A stretch of 27,249 bases of DNA from an uncultured Singulisphaera sp. (GCA_964484265.1 CAZAFH010000108.1:1-27249), one strand, 5' to 3'. Counted from the first letter of the stretch, positions 1,973-25,340 are shown. Made by a program: numbers and translations. The notes: a model not told the origin generated them from the sequence alone.

Positions 1973-2428
1973 ATGCCGCAATCGCTCGCGCAGATTTATG
2001 TACACATTGTTTTCTCCACCAAAAGCCGACATCCATTTTTGCAGGACGCATCGATCCGCGACGAATTGCACAATTATCTCGGAGGCACCGTGAACAATCT
2101 CGATTGTCCGGTGCTTCGCGTCGGCGGTGTTGCCGATCACGTTCACATCCTTTGCCGCCTGGGCAAAACTAAATCCATCGCGGATCTTGTCAAGGAATTA
2201 AAACGTGAATCATCGCAATGGATCAAAACGAAAGTGGCAAACCTCCACGACTTCTACTGGCAGAGCGGCTATTGCGCATTCTCCATCAGCCCCGGCCACG
2301 TCGAGGCATTGCGAACCTACATCGCGAATCAAGAAGAGCATCACCGAATCGAATCCTTCCAGGACGAGTTTCGGCGACTGCTGACCATGTACAGCCTTCA
2401 ATGGGACGAGCGGTACGTGTGGGATTAG
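1973..2428 (+). CDS. Y1 HUH transposase, IS200-like / RAYT family (151 aa)
   Basis: N-terminus MPQSLAQIYVHIVFSTKSRHPFL. HUH motif in DHVHILCRL. Tyr-containing motif FYWQSGYCAFSISP. C-terminus YIANQEEHH. The size is typical of the family. Confidence 0.85.
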   Translation: MPQSLAQIYVHIVFSTKSRHPFLQDASIRDELHNYLGGTVNNLDCPVLRVGGVADHVHILCRLGKTKSIADLVKELKRESSQWIKTKVANLHDFYWQSGYCAFSISPGHVEALRTYIANQEEHHRIESFQDEFRRLLTMYSLQWDERYVWD

Positions 2429-7952: not shown

Positions 7953-8666
7953 TCAACTCACGAGGATCGCCGGTTCCTCGGCTGGAACCATCTTGATCGT
8001 CGGCGCTTCGCTGAGCTGGAAGTTGCCGTCCTGAACCGTCAAGAAATGGCAATGGTGGTCAGTCCAGCAACCGGTATTGAAGTAAGCGGGAAACGTCAGG
8101 GTTTCGGGCGTCGGTTCCTCGGCGAAATGCGTGTGCCCACAGACGACGATATTGGCATTCTTTGCCTTCGCGTATTCGATCGCCTCGGTGCGCACGCGAT
8201 CGACGCAGCGCAGAAACGTCTTGCTGCTCCGCTTGGCGCTATTCGCCAAACGCCGGCTCCAGCGCTGGATCCGCAGATAAAACCAATCGGCGACGTGCGT
8301 AATCAGGGGATGGTCGGTCAGAAAGCGGTCCCACGCATCGCCATGAACGCATAGAACCTGCTTCCCGCCGGAATCGAATGTGTACTCAGGAACAAAGTTG
8401 GCGCCGATCAGATGAGCGACCGATTCGGCATCGAAATCATGGTTGCCGCGAACCCAGACGATCTCCATCTTGTCCGCCAGCTTGCGTAATTGCGAGAGGA
8501 CTTTCCAGTGCTGCTTCGTCAACCGGAATTCGGTATTTTCGAGCACGTCGCCAACAAGAATAAGCCTGTCCGTCGCGGGCAATGAATCGATGAACTCCTG
8601 CAGGGGCTCCACCTGACATGACTCGGCGCCAAGATGAAGATCGGAAATCAGGACGGCATCGAACAC
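7953..8666 (-). CDS. Calcineurin-like metallophosphoesterase, LpxH-like (UDP-2,3-diacylglucosamine diphosphatase-like)
   Basis: Metallophosphoesterase signature blocks: ISDLHLG, LVGDVLE, VRGNHD, VHGDAWD, CGHTH. The track start (TTG at 8684) is probably too long. AAGGAGG at 8673-8679 is followed 6 nt later by GTG (8666), giving MFDAVLISDLHLG. Confidence 0.8.
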   Translation of the reverse strand: MFDAVLISDLHLGAESCQVEPLQEFIDSLPATDRLILVGDVLENTEFRLTKQHWKVLSQLRKLADKMEIVWVRGNHDFDAESVAHLIGANFVPEYTFDSGGKQVLCVHGDAWDRFLTDHPLITHVADWFYLRIQRWSRRLANSAKRSSKTFLRCVDRVRTEAIEYAKAKNANIVVCGHTHFAEEPTPETLTFPAYFNTGCWTDHHCHFLTVQDGNFQLSEAPTIKMVPAEEPAILVS

Positions 8667-8960
8667 GGCAGACCTCCTTGTCAAGGGAGAAGAGTGCGAT
8701 TCTGGCCAGCGGCAATCACTCAGGAACGTTGAGTTCTTCTAGTAAAGTTCCGTGAAGACACGAAGTGTTCTCTGCGACTGTCGTGTGAAATCATCTTCAA
8801 AAATACTTGACACAAAACTCTTCACAACATCATCCTTCCTCGTCCGTGGGTTGTTACATTACTTCAAAACTCCACCACGATTGCCAGCATGTGCGCTGGT
8901 CGAGCGTGCTGGTGGGCCGACTCGAACGAGGCCCAATCCGACACCGAGGAACCGATCATC

Positions 8961-9779
8961 ATGACGACGATCCAGCAGCAGTATGACGAGGTCATTGCAC
9001 TTCATTACGATCTCGATCCGCAGGCGGTGACAGGCTCGACTCTCAATCGAGCCGTCGAACAGATCAAGAAACAGGAGCTCCTCAGCGATCTCACCACGCC
9101 GCTCCGCGTTTACGACGTCGGCATGGGCACGGGCATCTTCCTCAGCCGGCTCATTGCGCTAGCCGAGGGTCAGGTCCAACCGTTCGGCCTTGATCTTTCG
9201 CAGAAGATGATCGATTGCGCCTATCAGAAAATCCCCGATCTCGCCGGCGCTGTCGATACCGCGGCAAATCTCGACGCGCACTTCCCGGAGCAATCGTTCG
9301 ACCTGATCTCCACGCACTTCATCAGCGGGTTCGTTCCCCTCGATGTGCTGGCGCCGAAAGTCTTCAGCCGCCTCGAAGAAGGCGGGTACTGGTCTTACCT
9401 CGGCGCGACCAAGGGAGCCTATCCGGCACTGCAGTCGGCGTCCAACAATCGTGCTTTGCGATGGATCTTCGGCGGTCCGAAGCTCGATCTCGACAGCATG
9501 GTCCTCAGCCCCACCAACCAAAAGGAAGTGCTCGAAACCATGGAACGCAACGGTTTCGTGGTGCGCCAGTGCGAGACCTTCGAGCCGAAACTCAAGTTCC
9601 GCAACCTCAACGAATTCCTTGAATTTGGTTACTACGGCGGCTGGCTGACGCCATTCATCGACGCCATCGGCCTGCACAAGGCAGGTGCATTCACGCGGTT
9701 CTTGTTGGACCGCTTTGTCTTCCCGATCGAAGATCACCACAGCATCGAAATACATCTAGCACAGAAAATCACAAACTGA
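8961..9779 (+). CDS. Class I SAM-dependent methyltransferase
   Basis: SAM-binding motif I VYDVGMGTGIF. Downstream acidic and aromatic blocks (GLDLSQKMI, FDLISTHF). ATG at 8961 is preceded by GAGGAA. The 8889 start in the track adds an implausible Cys/Trp-rich leader. Confidence 0.8.
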   Translation: MTTIQQQYDEVIALHYDLDPQAVTGSTLNRAVEQIKKQELLSDLTTPLRVYDVGMGTGIFLSRLIALAEGQVQPFGLDLSQKMIDCAYQKIPDLAGAVDTAANLDAHFPEQSFDLISTHFISGFVPLDVLAPKVFSRLEEGGYWSYLGATKGAYPALQSASNNRALRWIFGGPKLDLDSMVLSPTNQKEVLETMERNGFVVRQCETFEPKLKFRNLNEFLEFGYYGGWLTPFIDAIGLHKAGAFTRFLLDRFVFPIEDHHSIEIHLAQKITN

Positions 9780-9785
9780 ACGACG

Positions 9786-9815
9786 AAAGGCCAAGGACAT
9801 GTTTCCTTGGCCTTT
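9786..9815 (+). terminator. Rho-independent terminator after the methyltransferase gene
   Basis: AAAGGCCAAGGA-catgtt-TCCTTGGCCTTT, a 12-bp perfect stem starting 7 nt after the stop. It runs into TTTTGCCTTT. Confidence 0.6.
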
Positions 9816-9836
9816 TGCCTTTGAGGAGGGTTGCTC

Positions 9837-11141
9837 TTGAAGATTGCAATTATTTCCGAAGTATTTTTGCCGAAGATCGACGGCGTCGTCAATCGCACGT
9901 TGAACCTGATTCGACAGCTGCCGCGCTATGGCGACGAACTGCTGATCGTCTGCCCGCAGGCGCCGGGATGCGACCAATGCCCCGTGCCGGTGGTGGATGT
10001 GCCAAGTTTCTCCTTCCCGCTGTATCCCGAGTATCGCATCGGCATGCCAGATCGAAGGTTAGTGGACAGCCTTCGGCGATTCGAGCCGGATGTGCTCCAT
10101 TACGTGAATCCGTTTGCGTTCGGCTTCCGGTGCAATGACGTGCTGCGGCGAGCGGGCATGAGCGTGCCGAGCGTTTTTTCGTTCCACACGCTGTATGGCG
10201 AGTTTGTCAAGGGCTACAAGGCCCTCAAACCGATGTCGTCGCTCATCTGGTGGCTGATGCGCGAATACCACAATCGAGCGGATGTGAACTTGACCGTATC
10301 CGGTATCGTGCAGGAGGATCTGGTGAAGCGTGGGTTCAAGAGCGTCGAACTTTGGCCGCCGGCGGTGGACAGCGACCTGTTTCACCCCAATCGAAAAAGT
10401 ACCGCGATGCGCGATCGACTGACGAATGGCCGGCCTGACAAGAAGTTGTTGTTGACGGTGTCGCGGCTCGCGCCGGAAAAAAATGTCGGGTTCATCGCCG
10501 ATGTGCTGCGGGAAATTCCCGACGCCTGTTTGGCAATCGTCGGCGATGGGCCGGCGCGATCGGATCTCGAACGCCGATTCCAGGGCACGGACTCCCGCTT
10601 CGTCGGCTATTTGAAGGGCGAAGAGTTGGCGTCCGCGTACGCATCTGCCGACGCCTTCGTGTATGCGTCCGAAACGGAGACGATGGGCAATGTCGTCCTC
10701 GAAGCGATGGCGTGCGGCTCTGCCGTGGTAGCGCCTCGCGCGGGCGGCATTCCGAATCTCGTCGCTCATGGCGAGACCGGTTTTCTCTTTCAGCCGCGCG
10801 ACGTGCAAGACGCAGTGCAGTGGACGCGCGAGGCCTTGTCGGAGGGCGTCCGCAAGCAAATTGGCGAGGCGGCACGGCACGCCATCGAAGCCCGTAACTG
10901 GGAGCAGTCAATCGGCCGCGTTCGCGAAACCTACCTTCAAGCCATCGAAAAGGCCGAGCGCGTCGCGCCGCGTTCGACATGGAGCGAACGATTGGCGCAG
11001 ATCACGACCAGGACGCTGGTCTCGCTATTCCGCTCCACCGCCGACCGGAAGAAACGCCGGCTGGACATTTCCCACCACCTCGCGATCCCAGTCGTGGCGC
11101 AGCCGAGTTTCGAAGCGCTGCCGACGAGCCGCGTTGCGTGA
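9837..11141 (+). CDS. GT4-family glycosyltransferase, SqdX/SQD2-like (candidate lipid glycosyltransferase)
   Basis: N-terminus MKIAIISEVFLPKIDGVVNRT. Other blocks: FSFPLYPEYR, FEPDVLHYVNP, RLAPEKN, AIVGDGP, FVGYLKGEELASAYASADAFVYASETETMGNVVLEAMACGSAVVAPRAGGIPNLV..GETGFLF (EX7E-type GT-B C-domain). GAGGAGG at 9823-9829 favours TTG at 9837 over TTG at 9831. Confidence 0.85.
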   Translation: MKIAIISEVFLPKIDGVVNRTLNLIRQLPRYGDELLIVCPQAPGCDQCPVPVVDVPSFSFPLYPEYRIGMPDRRLVDSLRRFEPDVLHYVNPFAFGFRCNDVLRRAGMSVPSVFSFHTLYGEFVKGYKALKPMSSLIWWLMREYHNRADVNLTVSGIVQEDLVKRGFKSVELWPPAVDSDLFHPNRKSTAMRDRLTNGRPDKKLLLTVSRLAPEKNVGFIADVLREIPDACLAIVGDGPARSDLERRFQGTDSRFVGYLKGEELASAYASADAFVYASETETMGNVVLEAMACGSAVVAPRAGGIPNLVAHGETGFLFQPRDVQDAVQWTREALSEGVRKQIGEAARHAIEARNWEQSIGRVRETYLQAIEKAERVAPRSTWSERLAQITTRTLVSLFRSTADRKKRRLDISHHLAIPVVAQPSFEALPTSRVA

Positions 11142-11188: not shown

Positions 11189-11716
11189 CTACGCCCCCCG
11201 TTCGCCTTTGACGAGGAGATCGGCCTGCAGTCCGGGCGACGTGAGAACATTCAGAACGATCGGTACCTCGTAGATCAATAGAACGACGAACAGCACGGAA
11301 CCCTTCGTGTATTTTTTGTTGAACTCCGTCATATCCGTCTCGACCGTATAAAGCTTGTGGCTCCAGGCCTGAATCTTGTAAGCGATTGGAATGATAATTA
11401 AGTACGCCCACCACGGGATCGTCACCCACAATGCCGCCGCAAAGATGACGCCCAGAAACAAGAGGGTGGATGCAAGAACGCGGATCGGGACATTGGGCGC
11501 GATCGCGGCGAGGTACGCCAATGCCGGAATGGCGAGCACCCATTCGACGCCCGCCAACCAGTAGAGAAGCCCGTAGACCGCGTACCAGATCGCAAACAGT
11601 GCAATCAAGTGCAGCACGTTGATCCCGAGTTGCGAATGCCGGCACAGGTGTCGAGCACAAAGTTCGTCGAACTCAACCAGCAGCAGGCGCATGGGCCGAC
11701 TTGTCAGTGTTGCCAT
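11189..11716 (-). CDS. Polytopic membrane protein, tentatively DUF962/Mpo1-like
   Basis: ATG at 11716 is preceded by GGAG. The part of the track ORF upstream of that ATG overlaps the aminotransferase gene. There are 4-5 TM helices. His/Asn pattern CRHSQLGINVLHLI and later IQAWSHKLYTVE resemble the two conserved His blocks of DUF962. The family call is from memory only. Confidence 0.6.
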   Translation of the reverse strand: MATLTSRPMRLLLVEFDELCARHLCRHSQLGINVLHLIALFAIWYAVYGLLYWLAGVEWVLAIPALAYLAAIAPNVPIRVLASTLLFLGVIFAAALWVTIPWWAYLIIIPIAYKIQAWSHKLYTVETDMTEFNKKYTKGSVLFVVLLIYEVPIVLNVLTSPGLQADLLVKGERGA

Positions 11717-13757
11717 GTCTTCTTCTCCATAATCCGAGCGATTTGAGCATGCCGCTGGCGGCACTTGTAAGCAGCTTGTAGAACGGCCGACGAATGACCT
11801 CGCCGATCGTTGCACACATTTGGCGAATTTCGTCCGGCTGAATCGTCAGAGGCGGCGTGATTTTGAGAACGTTGGGTTCGTATTGGCAGAAGCCCACGAG
11901 CACCGGAAAACGCGGATGCTGCAGCATGCTTGAAAGGTAGAACCAAAAGAGCCGTTTCTTGAACCAGCGTTGCGGCCAGGGCGTCGCGTCCAGTTCGATG
12001 CCGATCAGTAGACCGTGGACGCGAACCTCGCGCACTGCCGAACACGCCGCCAATTCCTCCCGAAGCAGTTTCGCGAATAGCTCTCCCGAGGAAACGACCT
12101 GTTCGCTCAGGCCAACTCTCTCGGCAAAGCGCAACACGTTAACCGCCGTGCGACATCCGAACGGGAACGCGAATCGCTTGCGGATCGCGGCAGGCAGCGT
12201 CGATCCGGCAGCGGAAAGTCTAGCCTGGACGTGCTCGGAATAAAGCGTCAGCGCGAACGGAAACATCATGTCGGAAACCGCTTTGCCAACGACCATCAGG
12301 TCCGGCGTCAACCCCATCGCACGGGAAAGCGAGAACTGCCCCGTGCGAAACATGCCGGTCTGAATTTCGTCGATCAGCAGCAAACAACCGTGCCGCGCTC
12401 GGCAGGCGTCGAGGTGCCGCACGACGGGTTCAGGCACGGGCCGAACGCCGCCCACGCCCTGGACCAATTCCATCTGGACGACGGCAATCGGATGCCGAGC
12501 CATCGCCGCGTCGATCTGCGCGATAGCGTCATCGGCAAACGGATCCACGTAGATCACGTCGCCGTACAGCGGGTCGATGTGCTCCTTGTAGGTCGAGTTC
12601 CACGTGCCCGTGAGCGCGAAGAGCGTCTTGCCGCCGAACCCCGATTTGAGCGCGAGCACATGCCGTATCGGGAATTGCGCGGCAAGAGCGATCTTGAGCG
12701 CGTTCTCGACGGCGCCGGAACCGCTGACTGAGGGCAAGACGTGATCGTGGCCCGTCAATTCCTTGAGTCGCGCGGCGAGTTCCGCCTCGCAATCAACATC
12801 GGCGAACGCGGCGATTTCCTCGGCATAGGTCGGCGGATTATGCCCGCGGACGCTGCATGCGACGCCGCCTACGGTGTCGAGAACCGGTCGCCCGTCGGCT
12901 ATCACGTAATGGCCGGCCGCGCGTATCCGAGGCGTGTCGTACCCTGTCGCCGCGATCGCGCTCGCAAGCGATGGACTATACAATCGGCGGAGCCTCTTTA
13001 GTCGCAGGTCTGGATTGGTGTCGATCTCGCGTAGCTCCTCCTGAACAATCGCGAAAAACTCGGGATCGTCCTTTTCGAGGCAGCGCATGAAGTGCAGCGC
13101 CGAAATCGTGTTGGGCTGAAACGTCGTCGAGTGGAAAGTCGATTTCCCAGGCTTGTTCCAGTGGTCGTACAACCGCCGGGTCGCCGAGAAGGCGCCGAAG
13201 GGCACTTCGTCATTGACGAACGATCCATCGAACACCACGATGTCGGGCGGATTCGCGGGCAGCAACATTTTCAGACGATGCCGATCGACGCAAACGATCA
13301 CCAACGCGCCTTCACTCGCCAATCGCTTCGCAAGACTCGCGTGTGAAGTTGGATCGTCGCCGGAGGCCAGTACGACGAATCCAAACTTGGCGTCCGTCGG
13401 CACGGCTTCGATCTTGCCAACCACGGTCAGCCCAGGCACGAACACGACGTTGCCTTCCGAGGCGAAAGGCCCAAGCCGATCCTCGGGGTCAATCACCAGG
13501 CCCGCCGTGGATTTGCCCGCCACGCTGCAACAGTACCGCGCCAGCTTGATCGCTCCGCTGAGCGCCTCGTCGAAGCTGTTCGCGAGAAACGATTGGTATT
13601 CCTCTGCGTTCTTGGCAAGAGACAGCCTGGACGCCTGCGCATATCGAGACAGGCAGAAACAGGTCTGCGCGACGTACGGGTTGAGATAGAGCCGAAACAG
13701 GTTCGGCAACTGCTCGCGCAACATCTGGTCCACGGTCGCTGTGAGGCGGTCATCCAT
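11673..13757 (-). CDS. Class-III (omega) aminotransferase: degenerate N-terminal AT-fold copy fused to an intact PLP-dependent domain
   Basis: C-terminal domain: SGSGAVENALKIA, LLLIDEIQTGMFRTGQF, PDLMVVGKAVSD (Schiff-base Lys), VHGLLIGIEL, VLKITPPLTI. N-terminal ~280 aa: LYLNPYV, NSFDEALSGAIKLARY, PPDIVVFDGSFVNDEVPFGAFSA (no Lys), FHSTTFQPNTISA. The first ATG is at 13757; the track start at 13805 is a TTG that overlaps the upstream gene. Confidence 0.85.
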   Translation of the reverse strand: MDDRLTATVDQMLREQLPNLFRLYLNPYVAQTCFCLSRYAQASRLSLAKNAEEYQSFLANSFDEALSGAIKLARYCCSVAGKSTAGLVIDPEDRLGPFASEGNVVFVPGLTVVGKIEAVPTDAKFGFVVLASGDDPTSHASLAKRLASEGALVIVCVDRHRLKMLLPANPPDIVVFDGSFVNDEVPFGAFSATRRLYDHWNKPGKSTFHSTTFQPNTISALHFMRCLEKDDPEFFAIVQEELREIDTNPDLRLKRLRRLYSPSLASAIAATGYDTPRIRAAGHYVIADGRPVLDTVGGVACSVRGHNPPTYAEEIAAFADVDCEAELAARLKELTGHDHVLPSVSGSGAVENALKIALAAQFPIRHVLALKSGFGGKTLFALTGTWNSTYKEHIDPLYGDVIYVDPFADDAIAQIDAAMARHPIAVVQMELVQGVGGVRPVPEPVVRHLDACRARHGCLLLIDEIQTGMFRTGQFSLSRAMGLTPDLMVVGKAVSDMMFPFALTLYSEHVQARLSAAGSTLPAAIRKRFAFPFGCRTAVNVLRFAERVGLSEQVVSSGELFAKLLREELAACSAVREVRVHGLLIGIELDATPWPQRWFKKRLFWFYLSSMLQHPRFPVLVGFCQYEPNVLKITPPLTIQPDEIRQMCATIGEVIRRPFYKLLTSAASGMLKSLGLWRRRHGNTDKSAHAPAAG

Positions 13758-13764
13758 TGTCTGC

Positions 13765-15384
13765 TTACTCGCTATGCTTGCCAGGATTGGATCGAACGAT
13801 CGCAAACGTCCGTTTCAGGTAGGCCTCGAATACGCCGCGGTTCCAGCGGAACATGAACATATCCGCCGACACACAATCATTTTCGCAAAAAGGCGAATTG
13901 GGCAAACCGTCGCGGCGGATGTAGCGAAGCTGGATCTTTTTCAACGGCAATGCCTGGTGCGTGCGCCAAAAGACCGCGAATTCCTCGGGCGTGAAAAACA
14001 ACTCGACATGCCAGGCCAACCACCGCGTCAGAGCGTGCATCAGAAACGAGGTGACCGCGTTCTCTTCGAGCCGATCCCAAAGTCGGCCGAGCGAATCGCG
14101 CGGCATTTCGAGAGCCGGCGCCGTCGTTTCGGTCAGCGACTTGTAGTATTTGGTGAGTTGGATCTTGTTGCTCCCCGCCGCCGATTTTCGAATTTCCACA
14201 TTCGTGGCTCGTGTATCGCGCAAGGCCTCGACGATCTGGTCGCTGTCGGCATTCTCCAATTCTTGTGTGTGTGCGAAATAGGTGGCCTTCGGTTTGACGC
14301 GCATCCACAATCGCAGGACAAGCATTGGCGAGGCGAAGTTGTAGACGTTCTCGCGAAATCTCGGATCGTCGCTTGTCGCCAGGATGAATCGGTCCTGCAT
14401 CGGATCGTACAGCAGCGCCTTGACGAACGTCTCCGCGACGGTCGTATAATCCGCGGCCGACCCGTGAATCGGTACGTAAAAAGCCGTGCCCAGGCAAACG
14501 TAGGAGTAGTTGGGCAGTACGAAAAGCTCCTGCCCGTCGGTAGCGAGAATGTCCGTGGCTCTGCGAATCGTGGCGCCGCAGTCCGCCTTAATGACGTCCT
14601 TGCTCGTGCGGACGATGCGGTTGCAATGAACCGTGGACACGACCGTGCGGCCTGGATAACGATGACCAAAGTGAACGACGCCATTGTTGTAGCCGACGAT
14701 CTTTACGTATCGAAAGTTGTGCGGATTGTAGAGTGCGAGCAATTCCGTGAAGGACGTTGGCCGAAGCGTGTCGCAATTCCACTGCCGAAGCGACGGCCGC
14801 CAATAGGCCAGCAGGTCAAGAATCATTGCCGCGATATGACCGATCAGCAGCAGCGACAAAAAATAGCAGATGCCTGTGAGGATCGCGGACCAGATGCCGG
14901 AAGTTCGATGCTCGCGCAGGACGTCCTTCCATGAGCGATTTGGGCCGAGGATGGTGACAGGCCGGCGAGGCCCCGTGCGGCGTTTCTCTAATTCGATCGC
15001 CGTGGAAAGCTCGGCATCCGTCACGAAGCAACTGCGCATGCGAGCGGGGACAAGCGGATAGGCGAAACCGAATCGGCGCAGCCAGATCGTGGTGCGCGAA
15101 GCCGTTCCAAGAATATGGCCAGCGCGAAACACGACGACGGGCGCGGAGAGATGCTTCATGCGAGCGAGGACTTCTGCTTCCGCCGCCGCTGCCGAGGCGT
15201 CGCCGAGATGAACGCGAAAACTGCTGACGACTGCGACAGACTCGGCCTTCTCCAATGTTGGCATGAGGGCGTCAAGCGTCCGCAGGCCGTCGGCAAGGTT
15301 GAAGGTGCAGCACGAAAAAGGAGCCTCAGGCTCGTCGTTCAGCCGTCGGCCTTCATCCCTGGTAAGTAAAGACAGGCTGGCCAT
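13765..15384 (-). CDS. FAD-binding (FAD_binding_4 / PCMH-type, ALO-like) oxidoreductase with an internal TM helix
   Basis: VKIVGYNNGVVHFGHRYPG, IKADCGATIRRATDIL and LPNYSYVCLGTAFYVPIHGSA are typical of the FAD_binding_4 fold. Hydrophobic segment IWSAILTGICYFLSLLLIGHIAAMILDLLAYW precedes it. The N-terminal ~150 aa looks like a Rossmann-less remnant of an SDR/epimerase (VVVFRAGHILG). The ATG at 15384 overlaps the psd stop by 32 nt. Confidence 0.7.
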   Translation of the reverse strand: MASLSLLTRDEGRRLNDEPEAPFSCCTFNLADGLRTLDALMPTLEKAESVAVVSSFRVHLGDASAAAAEAEVLARMKHLSAPVVVFRAGHILGTASRTTIWLRRFGFAYPLVPARMRSCFVTDAELSTAIELEKRRTGPRRPVTILGPNRSWKDVLREHRTSGIWSAILTGICYFLSLLLIGHIAAMILDLLAYWRPSLRQWNCDTLRPTSFTELLALYNPHNFRYVKIVGYNNGVVHFGHRYPGRTVVSTVHCNRIVRTSKDVIKADCGATIRRATDILATDGQELFVLPNYSYVCLGTAFYVPIHGSAADYTTVAETFVKALLYDPMQDRFILATSDDPRFRENVYNFASPMLVLRLWMRVKPKATYFAHTQELENADSDQIVEALRDTRATNVEIRKSAAGSNKIQLTKYYKSLTETTAPALEMPRDSLGRLWDRLEENAVTSFLMHALTRWLAWHVELFFTPEEFAVFWRTHQALPLKKIQLRYIRRDGLPNSPFCENDCVSADMFMFRWNRGVFEAYLKRTFAIVRSNPGKHSE

Positions 15385-16234
15385 ACTTGACCCTTAAGTT
15401 GGGAGAAATCAGCGGCGCCACATTGACGCCAGGCGGGGTGATCAGAACCGCGGTCGAGCCAAGCTCGAATGTCGCGATCCATTGCCCGCGTTTGACTTCC
15501 AACGGCGAAGACCACGTCTTTACCGAAAGTTCGTTGCGGCGAGGGCGAAAGTCCGGCGCCGACGGAAGCGAAATATTGCCCACGCCCCAGCCGGCGACCA
15601 TGACGACGAGGCATGGCCCCAGCGGTGTCGAGATGCGCAGGATCATCCGCTCATTCAAGGCATATACCGGAAACTCCGCACGCTGACAGGGCGGATGCAC
15701 CGGCAAGCGATATCCGGGAACATGTATCGCCTCTTCGAGCCTACCGTCCTGCGGGCTGAACACGCGGTGGCAATCGATCGGCGAGAGGAACACGATCGCG
15801 TAATGTCCATCCTCGAACGGGCGCGTGTCCACTTTAGGGAGCAAGGAACTCAGCGAATACTCGATGTTCTTCAGCGTGAGCAGCTTGCCGTGATCGACAC
15901 GACCGAAATCCTGCACCGTTCCATCGCAGGGGTAGAGAAAATGCCGGGTGTCCTCGGCAATAGGGCGAAACTCGGGCTTCACGCCGCGGGTAAAGAGGGC
16001 GTTGAGCGACAGGTAGGCCGACAGCGGCTGCTCGGCTTCATCCTCGTTGATGCCAGGCGGGTATTTCTTGTTGAAGATCGTGCGGTAGAGCGACGTGCGC
16101 AATCGCTTGCTCGGAATACGCAACCGGGCTAATTTCACTCCCATCACGGCTACCAGGAATTTCCACAAACCGCCGTGAACCATCTTCGCCTGGCGGAACT
16201 GCTCGCGCTTGATTGTTTTTATAGGCGTATTCAT
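15353..16234 (-). CDS. psd: Phosphatidylserine decarboxylase family proenzyme (pyruvoyl-dependent)
   Basis: YPCDGTV, FLSPIDCHRVFSPQDG, NERMIL, VAGWGVGNI and the self-cleavage motif FELGSTAVLI (GST). The start is uncertain: TTG 16303 (track), ATG 16246, or ATG 16234. The last is preceded by GAGG with 6-nt spacing. Confidence 0.85.
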   Translation of the reverse strand: MNTPIKTIKREQFRQAKMVHGGLWKFLVAVMGVKLARLRIPSKRLRTSLYRTIFNKKYPPGINEDEAEQPLSAYLSLNALFTRGVKPEFRPIAEDTRHFLYPCDGTVQDFGRVDHGKLLTLKNIEYSLSSLLPKVDTRPFEDGHYAIVFLSPIDCHRVFSPQDGRLEEAIHVPGYRLPVHPPCQRAEFPVYALNERMILRISTPLGPCLVVMVAGWGVGNISLPSAPDFRPRRNELSVKTWSSPLEVKRGQWIATFELGSTAVLITPPGVNVAPLISPNLRVKYGQPVFTYQG

Positions 16235-16283
16235 CTTGGTCCTCATTTTCGGGGAGTTCGCCCCCCAGGGCCTTTTTTGCCGT

Positions 16284-17855
16284 TCATACGTCGCTTGAAA
16301 CAATACGTGCGACGCGCAAGGCGTTGGCGATGATCGTTAACGCCGGGCCGACACCGAGCGACGTCGGCATGAAACTGCCATCCACGACGAACACATTCGG
16401 ATGCTGATGCATCCGGCAATCCGGCGTGAGCACGGATCGAGCCGGATCGTTTCCGAAGCGTATCGTTCCACATTGGTGAGCCACGTGCTCCGCCGACGCG
16501 AACTGGCTGGTCAGGCAAACCGACGCGCCGGATCGCTTGAGAATCTGCGCTGTCAGCCCGGCCAATTCCTTGCCTCGCTCCAGGTCGTACGGAGCGAATC
16601 GATGGTGCAGACACGGCTTGCCGTCCGCGCTCCATGAAACACGATTGGCCGGGTCGGGCAGATCCTCGATGATGCCGACCAAGGGCAGCATTCGGCGTCT
16701 CAGAAATCTCAGAACGAAGCTCGGCAGGAACCGCGAGGCCGCCTTGGCCAGCATCAAGGGACCAGGAACCGGAAGTGATTGCACCAGCCCCATCTTGTGG
16801 CTGAACTCCTTCGTTCCGAAATAGTAATCCGAGAAGCCGACCTGCTTCACGAAACCTTCGTCCGCTCCAAGACGACGGGCGAAGATCCCGATCGCGATGG
16901 GCGACAAGTGCATCATGTAATTCCGCCCGAGGAGCGGATGATCAACACCCGAACGCAACAGCACGAGCGGCGAGCCAATCGCGCCAGCCGCCAGCACGTA
17001 CCGCCGGGCGCGATATACTCGGCGCTGCCCGGTCCCACGATCGACCGCGTGAATTCCGGCCGGATTGCCTGCGCTATCGAGGTCGAAACATTCGACCTCG
17101 GTATTCGCGTGGACGCGCAACTTCGCCGGATCGGCCTCCTCCAACAATTGTGCCGAAGAGCGTCTCGCGCCGGTCGGGCAGATATAACCAGGGCAGGCTC
17201 GGCATTGCAGACAACGCTTAGAGTCGATCGCGAGCGGCAGGCGAAACGGCCTCAGTCCGTGCGATCGATTCGCCGACATCAGCCGTTCATTGACTGGGTG
17301 CAAGGGCAAGGGCTGATTCGGAAACCCATCGCGCGGCGTTGGCAGCGGACCGAAGTCGTCGTCCGTAGTTCCGGAGACCGAGAACAGCCGCTCGGCCTCC
17401 GCGTAGTAAGGTTCGAGGTCGTCATACGCGATCGGCCAATCCCATTGATCGCGGGGAAGCCTCGTGCCGTAGCTCTTGCCCGGATGGAAGTCGTCTCGGC
17501 TTGGGCGCAGGAGCGCGGCGCCATAGAGGGCCGTGCTGCCCCCAAGCACGCCGCCCATGTATAACCGCCGTGCCAATCCGTTGACGTCGATCTGGCGATC
17601 GTCATACGGCTGCTTGTCGATGAGCATTGCCTGTTCGTCGTGAAACGATTCGGATGCTCCCGCCGGCGGAGAAGGAGAGGCTCGACCGCGTTCCAGAAGC
17701 AGCACACTTTTCCCGGCTCGCGCGCATGTATGGGCCAGCGTCGCGCCTCCCGCGCCGCTGCCTGCCACGATTATGTCGGCATCGTATGGCAATTCAACTC
17801 TCCGAAACACAAGCAGCGACACGCGCTGACGCACGCAACAGCCTGGCAGCGGCAT
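16284..17855 (-). CDS. GMC-family FAD oxidoreductase with Cys-rich (Fe-S-like) insert
   Basis: ADP-binding fold YDADIIVAGSGAGGATLAHTCARAGKSVLLLERG. Central LAAGAIGSPLVLLRSG. C-terminal HQCGTIRFG...NVFVVDGSFMPTSLGVGPALTIIANALR. Cys cluster CLQCRACPGYICP. An alternative start is TTG at 17792, after GGAGAG, giving M-PYDADIIV. Confidence 0.85.
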   Translation of the reverse strand: MPLPGCCVRQRVSLLVFRRVELPYDADIIVAGSGAGGATLAHTCARAGKSVLLLERGRASPSPPAGASESFHDEQAMLIDKQPYDDRQIDVNGLARRLYMGGVLGGSTALYGAALLRPSRDDFHPGKSYGTRLPRDQWDWPIAYDDLEPYYAEAERLFSVSGTTDDDFGPLPTPRDGFPNQPLPLHPVNERLMSANRSHGLRPFRLPLAIDSKRCLQCRACPGYICPTGARRSSAQLLEEADPAKLRVHANTEVECFDLDSAGNPAGIHAVDRGTGQRRVYRARRYVLAAGAIGSPLVLLRSGVDHPLLGRNYMMHLSPIAIGIFARRLGADEGFVKQVGFSDYYFGTKEFSHKMGLVQSLPVPGPLMLAKAASRFLPSFVLRFLRRRMLPLVGIIEDLPDPANRVSWSADGKPCLHHRFAPYDLERGKELAGLTAQILKRSGASVCLTSQFASAEHVAHQCGTIRFGNDPARSVLTPDCRMHQHPNVFVVDGSFMPTSLGVGPALTIIANALRVARIVSSDV

Positions 17856-18074
17856 CCGACCTGGCCATCAAAGTGAATATTTTGGGTTCGACATGTGAAA
17901 AAAAGCGGAAAGCGTTGGTGAAGTATTGGTGAAGAGAAAGGGATCTTTGGTAATCGAATCATTTCAATCTGGCTGTTCGATCTTTGGAGTGCGGCGGCGT
18001 GATGCCGCTTTCTTTCTTTCGGCAGTGAATAGAAAAAAAGAAAAGGAAACCAATCTTGTCGACCGGAGCATGCC

Positions 18075-19778
18075 ATGCGAGCGCTATCCTTGTTGAGCGT
18101 CGTCGTTTTCACGTCCATAGCGAGCGGAGCCGATGCGCCGCGCTTTCAAGTCGCCGTCGAAGACACCATGCACCGCGTTCGCATCGATGCTCCGTACACA
18201 GGCGACTATCCCAAGCTTGGAGCGTTGACGGTTCGGCCACACCCGGGATCGCTGCCGGCCTCGCCCGTCGTCCTCAACCCACGCAGGCCAGGCGACCTCC
18301 GCCGCACTGCGGCGCTTAGCGCTGCTCCGGGGGAAGCGGAGGGATTTCAGGTCGTAATCATGGCGACCGAGATCGATCTGGCCGACGTCACTCTTTCGGC
18401 ATCGGCTCTCGCGCTTACCGGTGGAAAGGCTACCATCGCACCGGCACAGATTACCTTCAATCAAGTCGGTTATGTCAAGACGGCCAAGCCAGGCTACGCC
18501 GTCGAACGAACGGGCTGGTTTGCCGATCCTTTGTTGAATCCCGCCAAATTCAGCGTGAAAAAGGGCGACGTGCAACCGGTCTGGGTGACGATCCGGGTGC
18601 CGCCGAGAACTCCGGGCGGGGTCTACACCGGGGCCGTGACCGTGAAGCCCGCGAACAGTGATGCCCGTACGGTCCCGGTAGAACTCAGGGTCTGGTCGTT
18701 CGAGATTCCCGCGCAGGGTAGCCATCTCAAGATGGCCTTCACCTGGGACGAGAACGCCTCAGCAGCGATCCACGGATTGGAGAATTGGAAGGCGAACGAT
18801 CTCAAACGCAAGTATATGGACGCTCTGCTCGACCATCGCCTGGGGGTGGACAACATCTATCGATGGACGCCGCCGAATGTCGAGGACGTCAAGTATGCCG
18901 TGGCACGCGGTGCGCAGAATTTCAATCTGTTCAATGTCGGTTGGCCGAAAAGCTATACCGAAGCCCAGATTGAAAAGACGCTCAAGCGGATCGAGCCGAT
19001 TTGGCAACAGTATCAGGATGCCGGCGTCGCGGATAAGGCCTACATTTACGGGTTTGACGAGCACTATCAGGAGCTTGCAATTCCACAGATCTATGGAGCG
19101 ATCAAGAAGAAATTCCCCAACCTAAAACGTGCCGTCTCGACCGGCCCGCGCGGCAAACCGGCGGACGACCATGTGGATATCTGGACGATGAGCCTGGGGA
19201 CCTATTTCGCCGCCATGCAAAAGGGGCACATCGAGCGACTGCAACCCAAGGGCGTCCAGTTTTGGCTGTATCTGAGCACTTCCGCCGGTCCGCCGCGGCC
19301 GAACTGGTGGATCGAAAGCCCGCTGATCGAATCGCGCAGCTTGTTTTGGCTGGCGTATCAGGTCGATGCCGACGGTTGCCTGTATTATGCGATCAACCAT
19401 TTCACCGCAAAGCCGACACCCATCGCCGAGGACGGCGGCGCCTACACCACGTGGTCGGCTCGATCTTTTCCCGATCACAACGGCGACGGCCAGCTAATCT
19501 ACGCAGGCAAGAACGGCCCCTTGGCGTCGGTTCGGATGGCCAACATTCGCGATGGTATCGAGGATTACGAGTATTTGAAATTACTCGAACGGCTTCTTGT
19601 GCAAAAGAAGATCGCAAAGAATCAGGCCGAGGCGAGAAAACAGATCAAGGACCAGTACGTCCGTTACGTGGGCACCAATTTCTGGATCCACACACACAAG
19701 GCCGAAACGCTGCGGGCGATGCGCGATAGAGTCGCGGAGGCGATCGAGAAACTCAGCAAGTCAACGGCCGCGAATTAG
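18075..19778 (+). CDS. Secreted DUF4091 / GH123-like glycoside-hydrolase-fold protein
   Basis: GGAG lies 6 nt before the ATG. Signal peptide MRALSLLSVVVFTSIASGADA. C-terminal block NGDGQLIYAGKNGPLASVRMANIRDGIEDYEYLKLL is characteristic of DUF4091. Confidence 0.75.
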   Translation: MRALSLLSVVVFTSIASGADAPRFQVAVEDTMHRVRIDAPYTGDYPKLGALTVRPHPGSLPASPVVLNPRRPGDLRRTAALSAAPGEAEGFQVVIMATEIDLADVTLSASALALTGGKATIAPAQITFNQVGYVKTAKPGYAVERTGWFADPLLNPAKFSVKKGDVQPVWVTIRVPPRTPGGVYTGAVTVKPANSDARTVPVELRVWSFEIPAQGSHLKMAFTWDENASAAIHGLENWKANDLKRKYMDALLDHRLGVDNIYRWTPPNVEDVKYAVARGAQNFNLFNVGWPKSYTEAQIEKTLKRIEPIWQQYQDAGVADKAYIYGFDEHYQELAIPQIYGAIKKKFPNLKRAVSTGPRGKPADDHVDIWTMSLGTYFAAMQKGHIERLQPKGVQFWLYLSTSAGPPRPNWWIESPLIESRSLFWLAYQVDADGCLYYAINHFTAKPTPIAEDGGAYTTWSARSFPDHNGDGQLIYAGKNGPLASVRMANIRDGIEDYEYLKLLERLLVQKKIAKNQAEARKQIKDQYVRYVGTNFWIHTHKAETLRAMRDRVAEAIEKLSKSTAAN

Positions 19779-19792
19779 CGGATGACTCAGGC

Positions 19793-20032
19793 TCATTGCC
19801 CGAAGATGGCGACACATCCAACGATGGCGGCGCCGATGACAAACGGAATCGACAGAAGCATGTACGAGGCTGGCCGAGCGAAGTTGACGGTGGCCCCCCA
19901 TTGCCAGCCTCGCCGTTTCGCAACGACGACGTTCGGATCCTTCGGAGCGAAATAGAAGATGCCGAGATGCCAGTTGGCTGGGTTGCTGTGTTCGGGGTGG
20001 CAATCGGCGACGGTTTTGGTTTGTTCTTGCAT
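19793..20032 (-). CDS. Small membrane protein with DUF5808-like motif
   Basis: 79 aa. ATG follows AAAGGGA. WHLGIFYFAPKDPNVVVAKRRGWQWGATVNFARP matches the W.GIFY.NP.DPR..V.KR.G.G.T.NF..P pattern, followed by one TM helix (MLLSIPFVIGAAIVGCVAIF). Confidence 0.6.
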   Translation of the reverse strand: MQEQTKTVADCHPEHSNPANWHLGIFYFAPKDPNVVVAKRRGWQWGATVNFARPASYMLLSIPFVIGAAIVGCVAIFGQ

Positions 20033-20193
20033 GGCTGATCCCTTTCATTTGTTGGGTCACTTCGATCTCTCCGACGAACATCGTCGGAACGATTCCAGTA
20101 CCAGCCAACGGGCATGTTGTGACAAACGGGCGGATAATTTGGAATTATTTTCGTAAATAGGCGTTCTTCTGTTTCCCAAAAACGGCGAACCAG

Positions 20194-20223
20194 GCGCTTG
20201 GCCATCTGCTGTTGGCCAAGCGC
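20194..20223. terminator. Strong terminator-like hairpin in a gene-free region (strand and function unclear)
   Basis: GCGCTTGGCCA-tctgctgt-TGGCCAAGCGC, an 11-bp perfect stem. On the + strand it is followed by TTTCGCACTTTTTCGGCCTTTTTTTGCACTTTT. No + strand gene ends nearby. Confidence 0.4.
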
Positions 20224-20580
20224 TTTCGCACTTTTTCGGCCTTTTTTTGCACTTTTGGGGGGTGTTGGCCAACAAGCCGGGGGGGAGAGGGGGGGGAACT
20301 GCGTGCAGATTATTTTGGGAAAAACGAAAAAATGCCTCGCAACCGACTTTGCAATCGCCTCCGTCAGCGCGTTACGATGATGGAAAAACCCACTCTTCCG
20401 AGCGTCTCCGCGGACCCCTCAAACACTACGAACGCAAAGCCGCATAGGTGTTTGTTCGCAAATCCAATCTGCTTATTCGGTGGTGCCGCGAGACCCGCCG
20501 CCGGGGATTGTCCGGCCCTGTTGGCGGATTTCGCTCTATCGAACCGAAATTTCCCGGGTCCCACCAACCGAAGCGGACAT

Positions 20581-20820
20581 TCAACTCACGCCGTTCTTCT
20601 CGTTTCGTCGCGATTTCCATGCCGCTGACACTGTGTCAATATTTTTGCATAGGAAGGTAATCGTCATCGCTGAAAAACGCTTCGACGATTGCCCCGCTGC
20701 GTCACATGGTGCGGCAAACCGGCGACCACAATACGTGCAATTCTGGCAATACTGGAAGAGTAGGAACCGTGCCCGCACACCGCAAGAATTAAGTATGGTG
20801 CGCACCGTTCCCAAGTTCAT
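20581..20820 (-). CDS. Hypothetical small Cys-rich protein (79 aa), possibly translationally coupled to the upstream membrane-protein gene
   Basis: Its ATG (20818-20820) overlaps the TGA (20817-19) of the 306-aa gene as ATGA. Contains SCGV...YCQNCTYCGRRFAAPC. A hand count of GC3 gives 45/79, which is not decisive. No family was recognised. Confidence 0.3.
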   Translation of the reverse strand: MNLGTVRTILNSCGVRARFLLFQYCQNCTYCGRRFAAPCDAAGQSSKRFSAMTITFLCKNIDTVSAAWKSRRNEKNGVS

Positions 20821-21737
20821 TCGCTGTACGAGGAATCCTCGTGTGATGATTGCGAATTATTCTCGCTCCAGCCAAACCAACCGAGCCTCTCTGAAACGTA
20901 GAAGAAAAGTGAGCCTATGCATCCGAGAATAATCGCTCCTAACCACCCGCCAATTTTGTGACCGAGATATGCAAGGAGTCCGCTCCCAATGAATTTAACA
21001 ACATAGCGAACGCAGTCATAGAAAGTAATCTTCTGTTTCTTGGGGTTTTCGTCGTTCTCACGTTCTTCGCAGTCCTGGTCTTCGAAATCTTCGTCAACTT
21101 CCTCTTGCGCGTTTTTCTTTGATAGCGCAGCAGGTCTACGGGTGACACCGAATAGTACAAATGCAACGGTCATCGAAACCATAAATAGAAAGTGACTCAA
21201 GAAATGGAGAAAATGCCACGGCGCGTAATTCCATTGGCCGGAAAAAACAAAACTCATCATTCTTACGAAAAGATTAACAATAAATGAAAGAAGTAGCGGG
21301 ATGATGAAGGATGCTGCATAAAAACCAATCACCGAAACCGCTGCGTCTTTTCCTTCTTCGATTTCCCCCCGCCGATACATAATGATCGTAAAAACGGTAG
21401 CACCAATCGCGTAGAAAATTAGCCCGAATATGAGCATTCGATTCATGTACCCCGAAATGATCCATCCGGTTGAGGACACATCACATTTAGACATGTACCA
21501 TTTTGGTGCAAGCACCTTCTCATCGGCGATTTCCTTCTTCGCCAATTCCACCACCCGAATTCGTTCAACTTCTGCCTGCTGGGCTTCCACGGCAGCGCGT
21601 GCTGCGGCTTCTTGCGCTTGTTTTTTCCGGGCGTTATCGCATCCATTCTTTATTCCACCAACTACGAGAATGAGAACTATGATGATAATAATAATCGTGA
21701 TGGGCTCGCCCTTGCGTACGTGACGATCAATTAGCAT
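20817..21737 (-). CDS. Polytopic membrane protein of unknown function (306 aa) in a low-GC islet
   Basis: ATG follows GGGGA. TM1 is ITIIIIIIVLILVVGGI, followed by a charged helical segment (KKQAQEAAARAAVEAQQAEVERIRVVELAKKEIADEK). Three more TM helices and an acidic loop (EEVDEDFEDQDCEERENDENPKK) follow. The C-terminus is a glycine-zipper TM hairpin (GHKIGGWLGAIILGCIGSLF). Codon use is AT-rich compared with the neighbouring genes. Confidence 0.75.
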   Translation of the reverse strand: MLIDRHVRKGEPITIIIIIIVLILVVGGIKNGCDNARKKQAQEAAARAAVEAQQAEVERIRVVELAKKEIADEKVLAPKWYMSKCDVSSTGWIISGYMNRMLIFGLIFYAIGATVFTIIMYRRGEIEEGKDAAVSVIGFYAASFIIPLLLSFIVNLFVRMMSFVFSGQWNYAPWHFLHFLSHFLFMVSMTVAFVLFGVTRRPAALSKKNAQEEVDEDFEDQDCEERENDENPKKQKITFYDCVRYVVKFIGSGLLAYLGHKIGGWLGAIILGCIGSLFFYVSERLGWFGWSENNSQSSHEDSSYSE

Positions 21738-21972
21738 CGTATTCCCCTGATTTCAATTATCGTTTGAATGGCCTTGTCGAGAAAAAAATGTTCACAATTT
21801 GATTCGAATCTCAGATGGAAATATTTGAGTCATTGCTATTTTTTTTTGTTTCGGGGGACACCATACTTATCTCTTCGGCCCCGGCTTGCGAGGGTGAAGG
21901 TCGGTGCCCAGTCGCTGTGAGAGTTCGTCGATGAATCGCCCCGAACCGAGCGCGGGCTCGGGGGACACCATA

Positions 21973-22139
21973 TTCATACTTCACGCGGTGGAGATTGTCG
22001 CATTTGCCGACGGACCAAAACATTTCCGAGCCGCGACCGTGAGGGAGCGGCCGACAATATCTGTTCTGGCAAGGTATCCGGCTGGCCGCTCCCTCACGGT
22101 CGCGGCTCGGAAAAACGTCAATGTCACCCGCCGAAGGTA
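21973..22139. mobile_element. 167-bp palindromic MITE/REP-like element
   Basis: The core is a perfect 29-bp inverted repeat, 22024-22052 (ttccgagccgcgaccgtgagggagcggcc) and 22084-22112, with a 31-nt spacer. The flanks continue as an imperfect palindrome (cttcacgcggtg... / ...cacccgccgaag). The element splits a motif that is present intact at 21851-21884. Confidence 0.6.
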
Positions 22140-23932: not shown

Positions 23933-24109
23933 ACGGTCTCCTTTGGAAAGAAATATTTTACCGCGCCCCGTCGGCCATGTCACGAGGATTCTCGACGACT
24001 AATCCGTCGCTTCCCGTAAAGACATCGGCCCGCGCGCCGATTGAACCTCGCGACGCCGCGCATACATTGACATACCACACCTATTGGCAACCCTATTCGG
24101 ATAACCGCG

Positions 24110-25266: not shown

Positions 25267-25340
25267 TAGCGGGGGCCGGATTTGAACCGGCGACCTTGGC
25301 CTTATGAAGACCCTGCTCTAACCAACTGAGCTACCCCGCC
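25267..25340 (-). tRNA. tRNA with anticodon CAU (elongator Met or lysidine-modified Ile2); CCA not encoded
   Basis: Reverse complement: GGCGGGG-TA-GCTC-AGTTGGTTA-GAGC-A-GGGTC-TTCATAA-GGCCA-AGGTC-GCCGG-TTCAAAT-CCGGC-CCCCGCT-A. The cloverleaf is canonical, with a G1:U72 wobble and a 27:43 mismatch. It lacks the three G-C pairs of an initiator anticodon stem. Confidence 0.85.

Follow-up and report, generated by a model that had tools for sequence, protein, structure and literature searches.

A planctomycete operon joining a phosphatidylserine decarboxylase-family enzyme with two flavoenzyme-like proteins, a two-part aminotransferase and a small membrane protein

Bacterial phospholipid head-group biosynthesis is considered essentially solved, in the form of the Kennedy pathway and a few variants. 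Within it, phosphatidylserine decarboxylase (PSD) is by family a membrane enzyme, and its pyruvoyl-dependent reaction requires an alpha-amino acid. Oxidation on a lipid carrier is known from DprE1, whose substrate is a secondary alcohol of a sugar linked to a lipid phosphate, and yeast Mpo1 (DUF962), an Fe(II)-dependent 2-hydroxy fatty acid dioxygenase, acts on 2-hydroxy acids. Here we describe an operon in a 27,249-nucleotide stretch of DNA from an uncultured Singulisphaera sp. (GCA_964484265.1, CAZAFH010000108.1:1-27249; the whole of this stretch is called the window below), in which five minus-strand genes encode, in this order, a GMC-family flavin adenine dinucleotide (FAD) oxidoreductase, a PSD-family pyruvoyl decarboxylase proenzyme, a membrane-anchored VAO-fold flavoprotein-like enzyme (hereafter VAO-like protein), a two-part class-III aminotransferase (AT) and a small integral membrane protein (Table 1).

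This operon resembles the canonical PssA–Psd–PmtA pathway in having a bona fide-looking PSD proenzyme (with LGST and the D/H/S motifs) next to a gene for an S-adenosylmethionine (SAM)-dependent methyltransferase, and its hosts contain phosphatidylethanolamine (PE), monomethyl-PE (MMPE), dimethyl-PE (DMPE) and phosphatidylcholine (PC). By contrast, PSD is here embedded among two flavoenzymes and an aminotransferase, and the linked methyltransferase is not recognisable as PmtA: it scores 18.9 bits against the Legionella-type PmtA model NF045882 (cut-off 390 bits) and otherwise matches generic class-I methyltransferase domains only. A regular-expression search for the CDP-alcohol phosphatidyltransferase motif found no pssA or pgsA in the window or in 44 related loci, in agreement with a preliminary description of this DNA, which had noted that no pssA accompanies psd. 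That description had also named no characterised pathway with this gene set, and full-text literature searches likewise found no description of the cluster. Taken singly, the components belong to known superfamilies or are remotely related to them; the five-gene combination, the pseudo-dimeric AT and two proteins without a family are not described.

Conservation of the operon in Planctomycetota

A genome scan with an alignment of VAO-like proteins as query, using one genome per species, recovered 41 loci, whereas a scan with a single VAO-like sequence found nothing. Forty of these loci are assigned to Planctomycetota and one is unclassified; they represent Gemmataceae/Gemmatales, Tepidisphaerales, Pirellulales, Planctomycetaceae (including Fuerstiella) and Isosphaeraceae, the last including Singulisphaera acidiphila DSM 18658, Paludisphaera and Aquisphaera. 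In tblastn searches with the window proteins, the order GMC–PSD–VAO-like–AT–small protein and the strand are the same in all 41 as far as the contigs extend, with the VAO-like protein being 37–64% identical to that of the window; the small protein is absent only at contig ends and in one frameshift-ridden assembly. Gene calls around three VAO-like homologues reproduced all five genes in unchanged order, with convergent genes for a family 4 glycosyltransferase (GT4) and a methyltransferase after them. Because the order holds in 41 loci at this level of divergence and with unrelated outer flanks, the five-gene arrangement is far beyond chance. The synteny that the preliminary description had singled out for verification thus extends across Planctomycetota.

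Linked genes were counted in the 41 loci within flanks of up to 9 kb per side. The class-I SAM methyltransferase adjoins the operon in 33 of them, either convergent downstream, divergent upstream or co-directional. The last arrangement occurs in a Gemmataceae metagenome-assembled genome (locus L027, 4987–7770), where the methyltransferase and GT4 genes follow the small-protein gene immediately and on its strand, forming an apparent seven-gene operon. GT4 is found near the operon in 17 of the 41 loci (in none of the Isosphaeraceae loci, and absent from several others), and an LpxH-like phosphoesterase in 15. Clustering of all open reading frames (ORFs) from 44 loci gave no conserved neighbour beyond these three; Ser/Thr kinases recur in seven loci but are generic, and the outer flanks differ. 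Since no other neighbour is conserved, the functional unit is the five-gene operon plus the methyltransferase, often with GT4 and the phosphoesterase. The methyltransferase, whose orthologues begin aligning at about residue 17–27, is a candidate N-methyltransferase for the product of the pathway.

All five ORFs were found on the minus strand where the preliminary description had placed them, and its picture of an overlap-packed, same-strand unit is borne out, with two gaps (40 and 7 nt) and two overlaps (32 and 44 nt). Read from the sequence, the GMC stop (16284) is followed after 40 nt by the PSD ATG (16243), an alternative PSD start, TTG at 16303, giving a 20-nt overlap with the GMC gene instead; the PSD stop (15353) lies beyond the VAO-like ATG (15384), so that these genes overlap by 32 nt; 7 nt separate the VAO-like stop (13765) from the AT ATG (13757); and the AT stop (11673) and the small-protein ATG (11716), the latter preceded by GGAG, overlap by 44 nt. 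Tight or overlapping junctions are likewise present in other loci. In the five minus-strand frames, GC content by codon position shows the pattern typical of coding sequence in this genome (GC3, 0.70–0.74, above GC1, above GC2), and long plus-strand ORFs over the same DNA have the inverted pattern; therefore, the minus-strand frames are coding and the plus-strand ORFs are shadows.

An antisense ORF opposite the VAO-like gene (13741–14934, plus strand) also stays open in most related loci (equivalent positions in 40 loci). Its codon-position GC is that of a shadow frame of a GC-rich gene, and it was rejected as a gene.

The five operon proteins

Profile searches upheld three of the five family calls in the preliminary description (GMC, PSD and Aminotran_3); of the other two, FAD_binding_4 holds by fold only and DUF962 is not supported. 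That description had also counted three products as membrane-associated. Hydropathy analysis of all five proteins gives transmembrane (TM) segments only in the VAO-like protein (residues 161–196) and the small protein (about four), PSD being a membrane protein by family knowledge only. Three elements were absent from it: the degenerate N-terminal half of AT, the Fe–S-type Cys motif of the GMC protein and the linked methyltransferase, GT4 and phosphoesterase genes.

The PSD-family protein matches Pfam PS_Dcarbxylase (PF02666) at 148.4 bits (cut-off 22) and exceeds the equivalog cut-off of TIGR00163 (131 bits; cut-off 111.75); its match to the E. coli PSD structures 7cnw/6l06 has an E-value of 1e-24. 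The motifs PcD, FLSP.dCHR, LNER, AGWGVG and TFeLGSt are conserved among 25 orthologues, with PcD, FLSP.dCHR and TFeLGSt invariant or nearly so. To judge from these features, the operon PSD looks canonical.

The GMC protein carries both domains of its family (GMC_oxred_N, PF00732, 63.4 bits, cut-off 23; GMC_oxred_C, PF05199, 68.3 bits, cut-off 24.6) and the GxGxxG FAD fold (IIVAGSGAGG, residues 27–36). Its orthologues begin aligning only at about residue 16–25, so the true start may lie downstream of the ORF start. Two motifs are invariant in 27 full-length orthologues: C-x2-C-x2-C-x4-C-P at residues 215–227, and HVAHQCGT, putatively the catalytic His motif of the GMC C-terminal domain. The nearest solved structures are the alpha subunit of FAD-glucose dehydrogenase (6a2u/8hdd, 1e-31) and the large subunit of fructose dehydrogenase (7w2j, 6e-26). 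These membrane-bound enzymes are almost full-length matches and carry a 3Fe-4S cluster. The Cys motif of the GMC protein, a candidate for binding such a cluster, apparently lies at about the residues that bind it in the dehydrogenases, with a spacing (CxxCxxCxxxxCP) different from that of FAD-glucose dehydrogenase. Since the glucose and fructose dehydrogenases carry their cluster in about this region, the GMC enzyme probably hands electrons to an acceptor other than O2. In contrast to those enzymes, the operon has no cytochrome c subunit and no small Tat-signal subunit; no family match to such a partner was found among the conserved cluster genes, the individual flanking ORFs of the 44 loci not having been scanned.

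The pairing of a GMC flavoenzyme with a class-III AT recalls NeoQ/BtrQ with NeoB/BtrB, and the same alcohol-to-carbonyl-to-amine logic may apply. However, the operon is without aminoglycoside genes and its proteins are membrane-linked. This analogy, drawn in the preliminary description, is weaker than claimed: against the 1e-31 match to Fe–S sugar dehydrogenases, the NeoQ-type 6'''-hydroxyparomomycin oxidase matches the GMC protein at 2e-12 and over residues 262–345 only. Synthesis of an aminoglycoside-type compound was rejected, given this weak similarity and the presence of no other such genes.

The VAO-like protein comprises an N-terminal alpha/beta domain, a 36-residue hydrophobic hairpin (residues 161–196) and a catalytic body like that of aldonolactone oxidase, alditol oxidase and DprE1. 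Its FAD_binding_4 match (PF01565, 18.6 bits) lies below the Pfam cut-off of 26.4, no NCBIfam model matches, and among the best 120 of at least 640 homologues (these 120 being 54–74% identical) a precomputed PF01565 match exists in 18. The two-domain VAO fold is nevertheless confirmed by structure prediction: an AlphaFold (AF2) model built with 25 homologues (mean predicted local confidence (pLDDT) 80.4; predicted TM-score (pTM) 0.76) was matched by Foldseek to Protein Data Bank (PDB) entries 8qnc (1.9e-14), alditol oxidase AldO 2vfs (6e-13) and DprE1 (5e-12) with a probability of 1.00, the matches ranging from about 1.9e-14 to 3e-10 and covering L-galactono-1,4-lactone dehydrogenase, alditol oxidase, DprE1 and type-II cholesterol oxidase. 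The likeness to DprE1, alditol oxidase and aldonolactone oxidoreductases lies in the predicted fold of the C-terminal 370 residues, and DprE1 provides a precedent for hydroxyl oxidation on a lipid-phosphate-linked polyol at the membrane. By contrast, sequence identity to these enzymes is 13–16%, the N-terminal alpha/beta domain and the TM hairpin are extra, and the operon has no DprE2-type reductase partner, an AT gene following instead. In the alignment, the window protein (residues 1–60) and its four nearest relatives are without the first 40–90 residues of the N-terminal domain, including the strand LLVAGFG.P.A.DYA present in most orthologues, which suggests that this domain is dispensable or degenerate.

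The AT has a complete class-III domain at residues 279–654 (Aminotran_3, PF00202, 159.2 bits, cut-off 30.5), in which DEIQTG and the lysine binding pyridoxal phosphate (PLP), K492 in GKAVSD, are invariant in an alignment of 20 orthologues. Residues 1–250 form a degenerate AT-like half in which Glu replaces the PLP lysine (VVFDESF). When the N-terminal halves of 14 orthologues were scanned individually with Pfam, seven gave Aminotran_3 matches (best, 2.4e-6) at model positions 251–303, the region around the PLP lysine. The nearest solved structures to AT are AcOAT/LysJ (1vef) and PigE (4ppm).

The small protein is histidine-rich, with R22, H23, R26, H27, H36, Q116, H120 and E150 invariant in orthologue alignments; H23, H27, H36, H120 and E150 are candidate metal ligands. 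An AF2 model (pLDDT 88.7) is all-helical with four TM helices and found no match in the PDB with Foldseek. The DUF962 assignment of the preliminary description reduces to a remote, sub-threshold resemblance: Pfam Mpo1-like (PF06127) scores 12.3 bits (E = 0.19) on the window protein, for a gathering score of 24 bits, and of 22 orthologues, 12 give a match at E ≤ 1, the best of them at 3.2e-4 and all short of the threshold. Like the small protein, yeast Mpo1 is a small multi-pass membrane protein with conserved His/Glu, and the resemblance falls below the Pfam cut-off in every orthologue scanned. An exhaustive HMMER profile search with the small-protein alignment yielded just 108 representatives (E ≤ 1e-3) among 1.84 billion proteins, which, these hits not having been scanned against PF06127, suggests that the family does not reach into the large DUF962 family. 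The small protein is treated here as a family of its own with possible remote Mpo1-like ancestry.

A tentative route from phosphatidylglycerol and its rivals

The operon plausibly encodes a membrane-lipid, amine-forming pathway. What the sequences show is the gene order and its conservation, the enzyme families, intact catalytic motifs and anchoring in the membrane; what the pathway starts from and makes, in which sequence of reactions, and how the small protein takes part, we infer. Of the amine-bearing lipid or glycolipid proposed in the preliminary description, the membrane-lipid role gains support from the linked neighbours and membrane anchors, and the product remains a proposal. Because order and strand hold in 41 loci from at least five planctomycete lineages with differing flanks, the five genes may form one translationally coupled pathway at the cytoplasmic membrane, in which an amine head group is made and then N-methylated, a view that we hold only tentatively. 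With similar caution, the glycerol head group of phosphatidylglycerol (PG) may possibly be converted, while still lipid-linked, to phosphatidylserine (PS), PE and PC in a 'serine pathway'. Here, the two flavoenzymes would act on the free glycerol in the PG head group, one oxidising the secondary alcohol to a ketone and the other the primary alcohol to a carboxylate, with electrons leaving the GMC enzyme through an Fe–S cluster; AT would convert the carbonyl to an amine, yielding PS without PssA; PSD would decarboxylate PS to PE; and the methyltransferase would convert PE to MMPE, DMPE and PC. The small His-rich membrane protein could be an iron-binding accessory: an oxidase acting on a 2-hydroxy-acid intermediate, a membrane anchor or an electron acceptor.

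The choice of glycerol and serine head groups rests on two alcohol oxidations and one transamination being exactly sufficient to connect them, and the scheme is favoured because all four catalytic types are used with nothing left over. It is supported by PSD being in the operon everywhere with all canonical motifs and above its equivalog cut-off, while no pssA motif occurs in the loci. A polyol or lipid-linked substrate is suggested by the VAO-like protein having its nearest folds in DprE1 and in the polyol-oxidising alditol oxidase; head-group oxidation by the membrane-bound Fe–S sugar dehydrogenases nearest to the GMC protein together with its invariant four-Cys motif; transamination by the retained PLP lysine and DEIQTG; and N-methylation by the adjacency of the methyltransferase in 33 of 41 loci. 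A role for the small protein might follow from Mpo1 acting on 2-hydroxy acids, of which phosphatidylglycerate would be one. PG, phosphatidic acid, PC, PE, MMPE and DMPE occur in planctomycetes from peat, among them Singulisphaera and a Gemmata-like strain (PMC7828035; PMC12493201); because PE, MMPE, DMPE and PC are all present, stepwise methylation of PE operates in these planctomycetes. The phosphorylated serine pathway (SerA–SerC) has the same chemical logic, leading from glycerate through hydroxypyruvate to serine while the phosphate ester is kept. The likeness is an analogy only, between unrelated enzymes: flavoenzymes would stand here in place of the NAD-dependent SerA and a class-III in place of a class-V AT, with a phospholipid head group as the substrate that we propose. 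Stated in full, namely that planctomycetes make PS, and then PE and PC, independently of PssA from PG by means of GMC Fe–S and DprE1-like flavoenzymes, a pseudo-dimeric AT, PSD and a new N-methyltransferase, the proposal is doubtful.

Several points weigh against this route. We know of no biochemical precedent for the formation of PS from PG, and the route would be redundant if the host genomes carry both pssA and a second housekeeping psd. GT4 and the phosphoesterase are left without a role. The putative cofactor loops of the VAO-like protein (residues 234–238 and 291–312) have pLDDT values below 50, so that FAD binding is a prediction, and the Mpo1 link of the small protein is sub-threshold. 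As regards AT, its nearest characterised class-III relatives (AcOAT and PigE) have aldehydes and not 2-oxo acids as their amine acceptors, an objection that would be sidestepped by the hypothetical order in which the ketone is formed first. In addition, the conserved Arg of the 'vlR..PPL' motif, which holds the alpha-carboxylate of a 2-oxo acid and precedes 'PPL' in 1vef and 4ppm, is replaced in AT by a Lys (NVLKITPPL) invariant in 20 orthologues.

The main rival to the conversion of PG to PS is the synthesis of an aminoglycolipid, in which GT4 would make a glycosyl-diacylglycerol or glycosyl-phospholipid, one or both flavoenzymes would oxidise a sugar hydroxyl to an aldehyde or ketone in the manner of NeoQ and DprE1, AT would aminate this carbonyl in the manner of NeoB and the methyltransferase would N-methylate the product to a cationic glycolipid. 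Sugar dehydrogenases are indeed the nearest relatives of the GMC protein, which also partially matches the NeoQ-type oxidase, and by fold the VAO-like protein matches DprE1 as well as oxidases of sugar lactones and alditols. GT4, which lies beside the operon in 17 of the 41 loci and in L027 follows it immediately on its strand, has lipid glycosyltransferases as its best NCBIfam matches (GlcNAc-PG synthase, 135 bits, cut-off 480; MGlcDAG synthase, 78 bits), both below cut-off. Together with the Metallophos-family phosphoesterase, it recalls PlcP–Agt, the glycolipid pair of phosphate-starvation lipid remodelling (PMC4796936). The likeness consists in a phosphoesterase and a GT4 near each other and near lipid genes, which fits a membrane-lipid context. 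In the window, however, the two genes are divergent; they are absent from many loci, and their scores for curated families lie far below the cut-offs (for the phosphoesterase against NCBIfam LpxH, 44.6 bits, cut-off 134). Moreover, none of the Isosphaeraceae loci has a GT4 gene beside the operon, nor have several further loci; the small membrane protein is left without a role, and so is the invariant mid-operon PSD, a sugar head group offering no alpha-amino acid. An aminoglycolipid is an unlikely product, and equally improbable is the part that this explanation leaves to PSD, either a parallel supply of PE or action on another intermediate.

Alternatively, PSD and the methyltransferase might be the housekeeping enzymes of PE and PC synthesis, with pssA elsewhere in the genome and the other four genes as passengers serving another membrane function, such as tailoring of acyl chains or other lipids, or a respiratory dehydrogenase. 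The PSD score above the equivalog cut-off and the known presence of PE, MMPE, DMPE and PC in these organisms agree with this, as does the fact that the other four proteins have no demonstrated substrate. A gene order kept at phylum scale, a PSD gene wedged between oxidoreductase genes and overlapping starts and stops nevertheless argue for one pathway, and the methyltransferase scores 18.9 bits where the PmtA cut-off is 390; we consider ordinary phospholipid synthesis with passengers quite unlikely. Very improbable, in our estimation, is the formation of a lipidic alkylamine, in which a 2-hydroxy fatty acid would be converted via the 2-oxo acid and the 2-amino fatty acid to a long-chain primary amine, then methylated or incorporated into lipid. 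This chain is chemically coherent in its use of a dehydrogenase, an AT and a pyruvoyl decarboxylase; the PSD family includes decarboxylases of substrates other than PS, such as PsiD; and the small protein gives a remote Mpo1-like signal. Yet both flavoenzymes resemble sugar or polyol oxidoreductases and not 2-hydroxy-acid dehydrogenases, one oxidation would suffice where two flavoenzymes are conserved, PSD looks canonical, and no planctomycete alkylamine lipid was found reported in the literature examined.

Three further candidates were rejected. Ornithine-lipid synthesis in S. acidiphila proceeds through OlsH/OlsG/OlsI (Sinac_1599–1601), which belong to unrelated families; hopanoid or sterol amination does not fit the presence of the operon in lineages that are not known to make sterols; and de novo choline or betaine synthesis leaves AT without a role.

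An operon intact across a whole phylum thus joins a PS-type decarboxylase with two flavin oxidoreductases and an AT, and two of the protein families involved lack a curated assignment. Behind it lies either a new route to PS, PE and PC or an amine-bearing lipid not yet described, and bacterial membrane biology would gain a pathway in both cases. Some of the Singulisphaera lipids reported without an identity could be accounted for in this way, S. acidiphila still having lipid spots of this kind (PMC12493201). Gene knockouts have recently been established in S. acidiphila (PMC12493201), so that the function of the operon is directly testable in a genetically tractable host.

Neighbouring genes and other features of the window

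Table 1. Coordinates of the operon, its genes and the neighbouring features (positions counted from the first nucleotide of the window)
Feature	Position	Strand	Remarks
Five-gene block	11189-17855	-	Order GMC, PSD, VAO-like, AT, small 4-TM protein
GMC-family FAD oxidoreductase	16284-17855	-	523-aa ORF; GMC_oxred_N and GMC_oxred_C
PSD-family pyruvoyl decarboxylase proenzyme	15353-16243	-	ATG 16243, alternative TTG 16303; LGST self-cleavage site
Membrane-anchored VAO-fold flavoprotein-like enzyme	13765-15384	-	539 aa; ends in invariant NPGKHS
Two-part class-III aminotransferase	11673-13757	-	694 aa; Aminotran_3 at residues 279-654
Small integral membrane protein	11189-11716	-	175 aa, about 4 TM helices, histidine-rich
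GT4 glycosyltransferase	9831-11141	+	Pfam Glycos_transf_1/Glyco_transf_4; 51 nt after methyltransferase
Class-I SAM methyltransferase	8889-9779	+	Convergent with operon; Pfam Methyltransf_25/11
Calcineurin-like phosphoesterase, LpxH-like, possibly PlcP-like	7953-8684	-	Pfam Metallophos
Divergent intergenic region, operon/GH123-like gene	17856-18074		219 nt; presumed operon promoter region
Secreted GH123-like glycoside hydrolase	18075-19778	+	Upstream, divergent from operon

The downstream border of the operon is formed by the convergent methyltransferase–GT4 pair (8889–11141, plus strand), GT4 being co-transcribed with the methyltransferase. Upstream, the divergent GH123-like gene is not kept beside the operon in other loci. 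In the intergenic region between the two, an Rfam scan found no family, and consensus promoter and terminator matches are not commoner than in shuffled sequences.

The remaining features lie apart from the operon. GC content at 20001–22000 is 0.46–0.52, compared with about 0.59 elsewhere in the window, and this segment may be recently acquired DNA; within it, a minus-strand ORF of 306 aa (20817–21737) that belongs to no Pfam family combines a run of isoleucines and several hydrophobic stretches with an acidic tail. Neither a DUF1501 protein (22469–23983, minus strand; 269 bits) nor a 557-aa ORF (3733–5406, minus strand), which matches Ig-like domains weakly, is related to the operon. A tRNA-Met gene (CAT; 25267–25340, minus strand) is the sole RNA gene found in the window, and an IS200-like Y1 transposase gene (1973–2428, plus strand; Pfam Y1_Tnp, 92 bits) lies between genes for a UbiA prenyltransferase and a dihydrouridine synthase.

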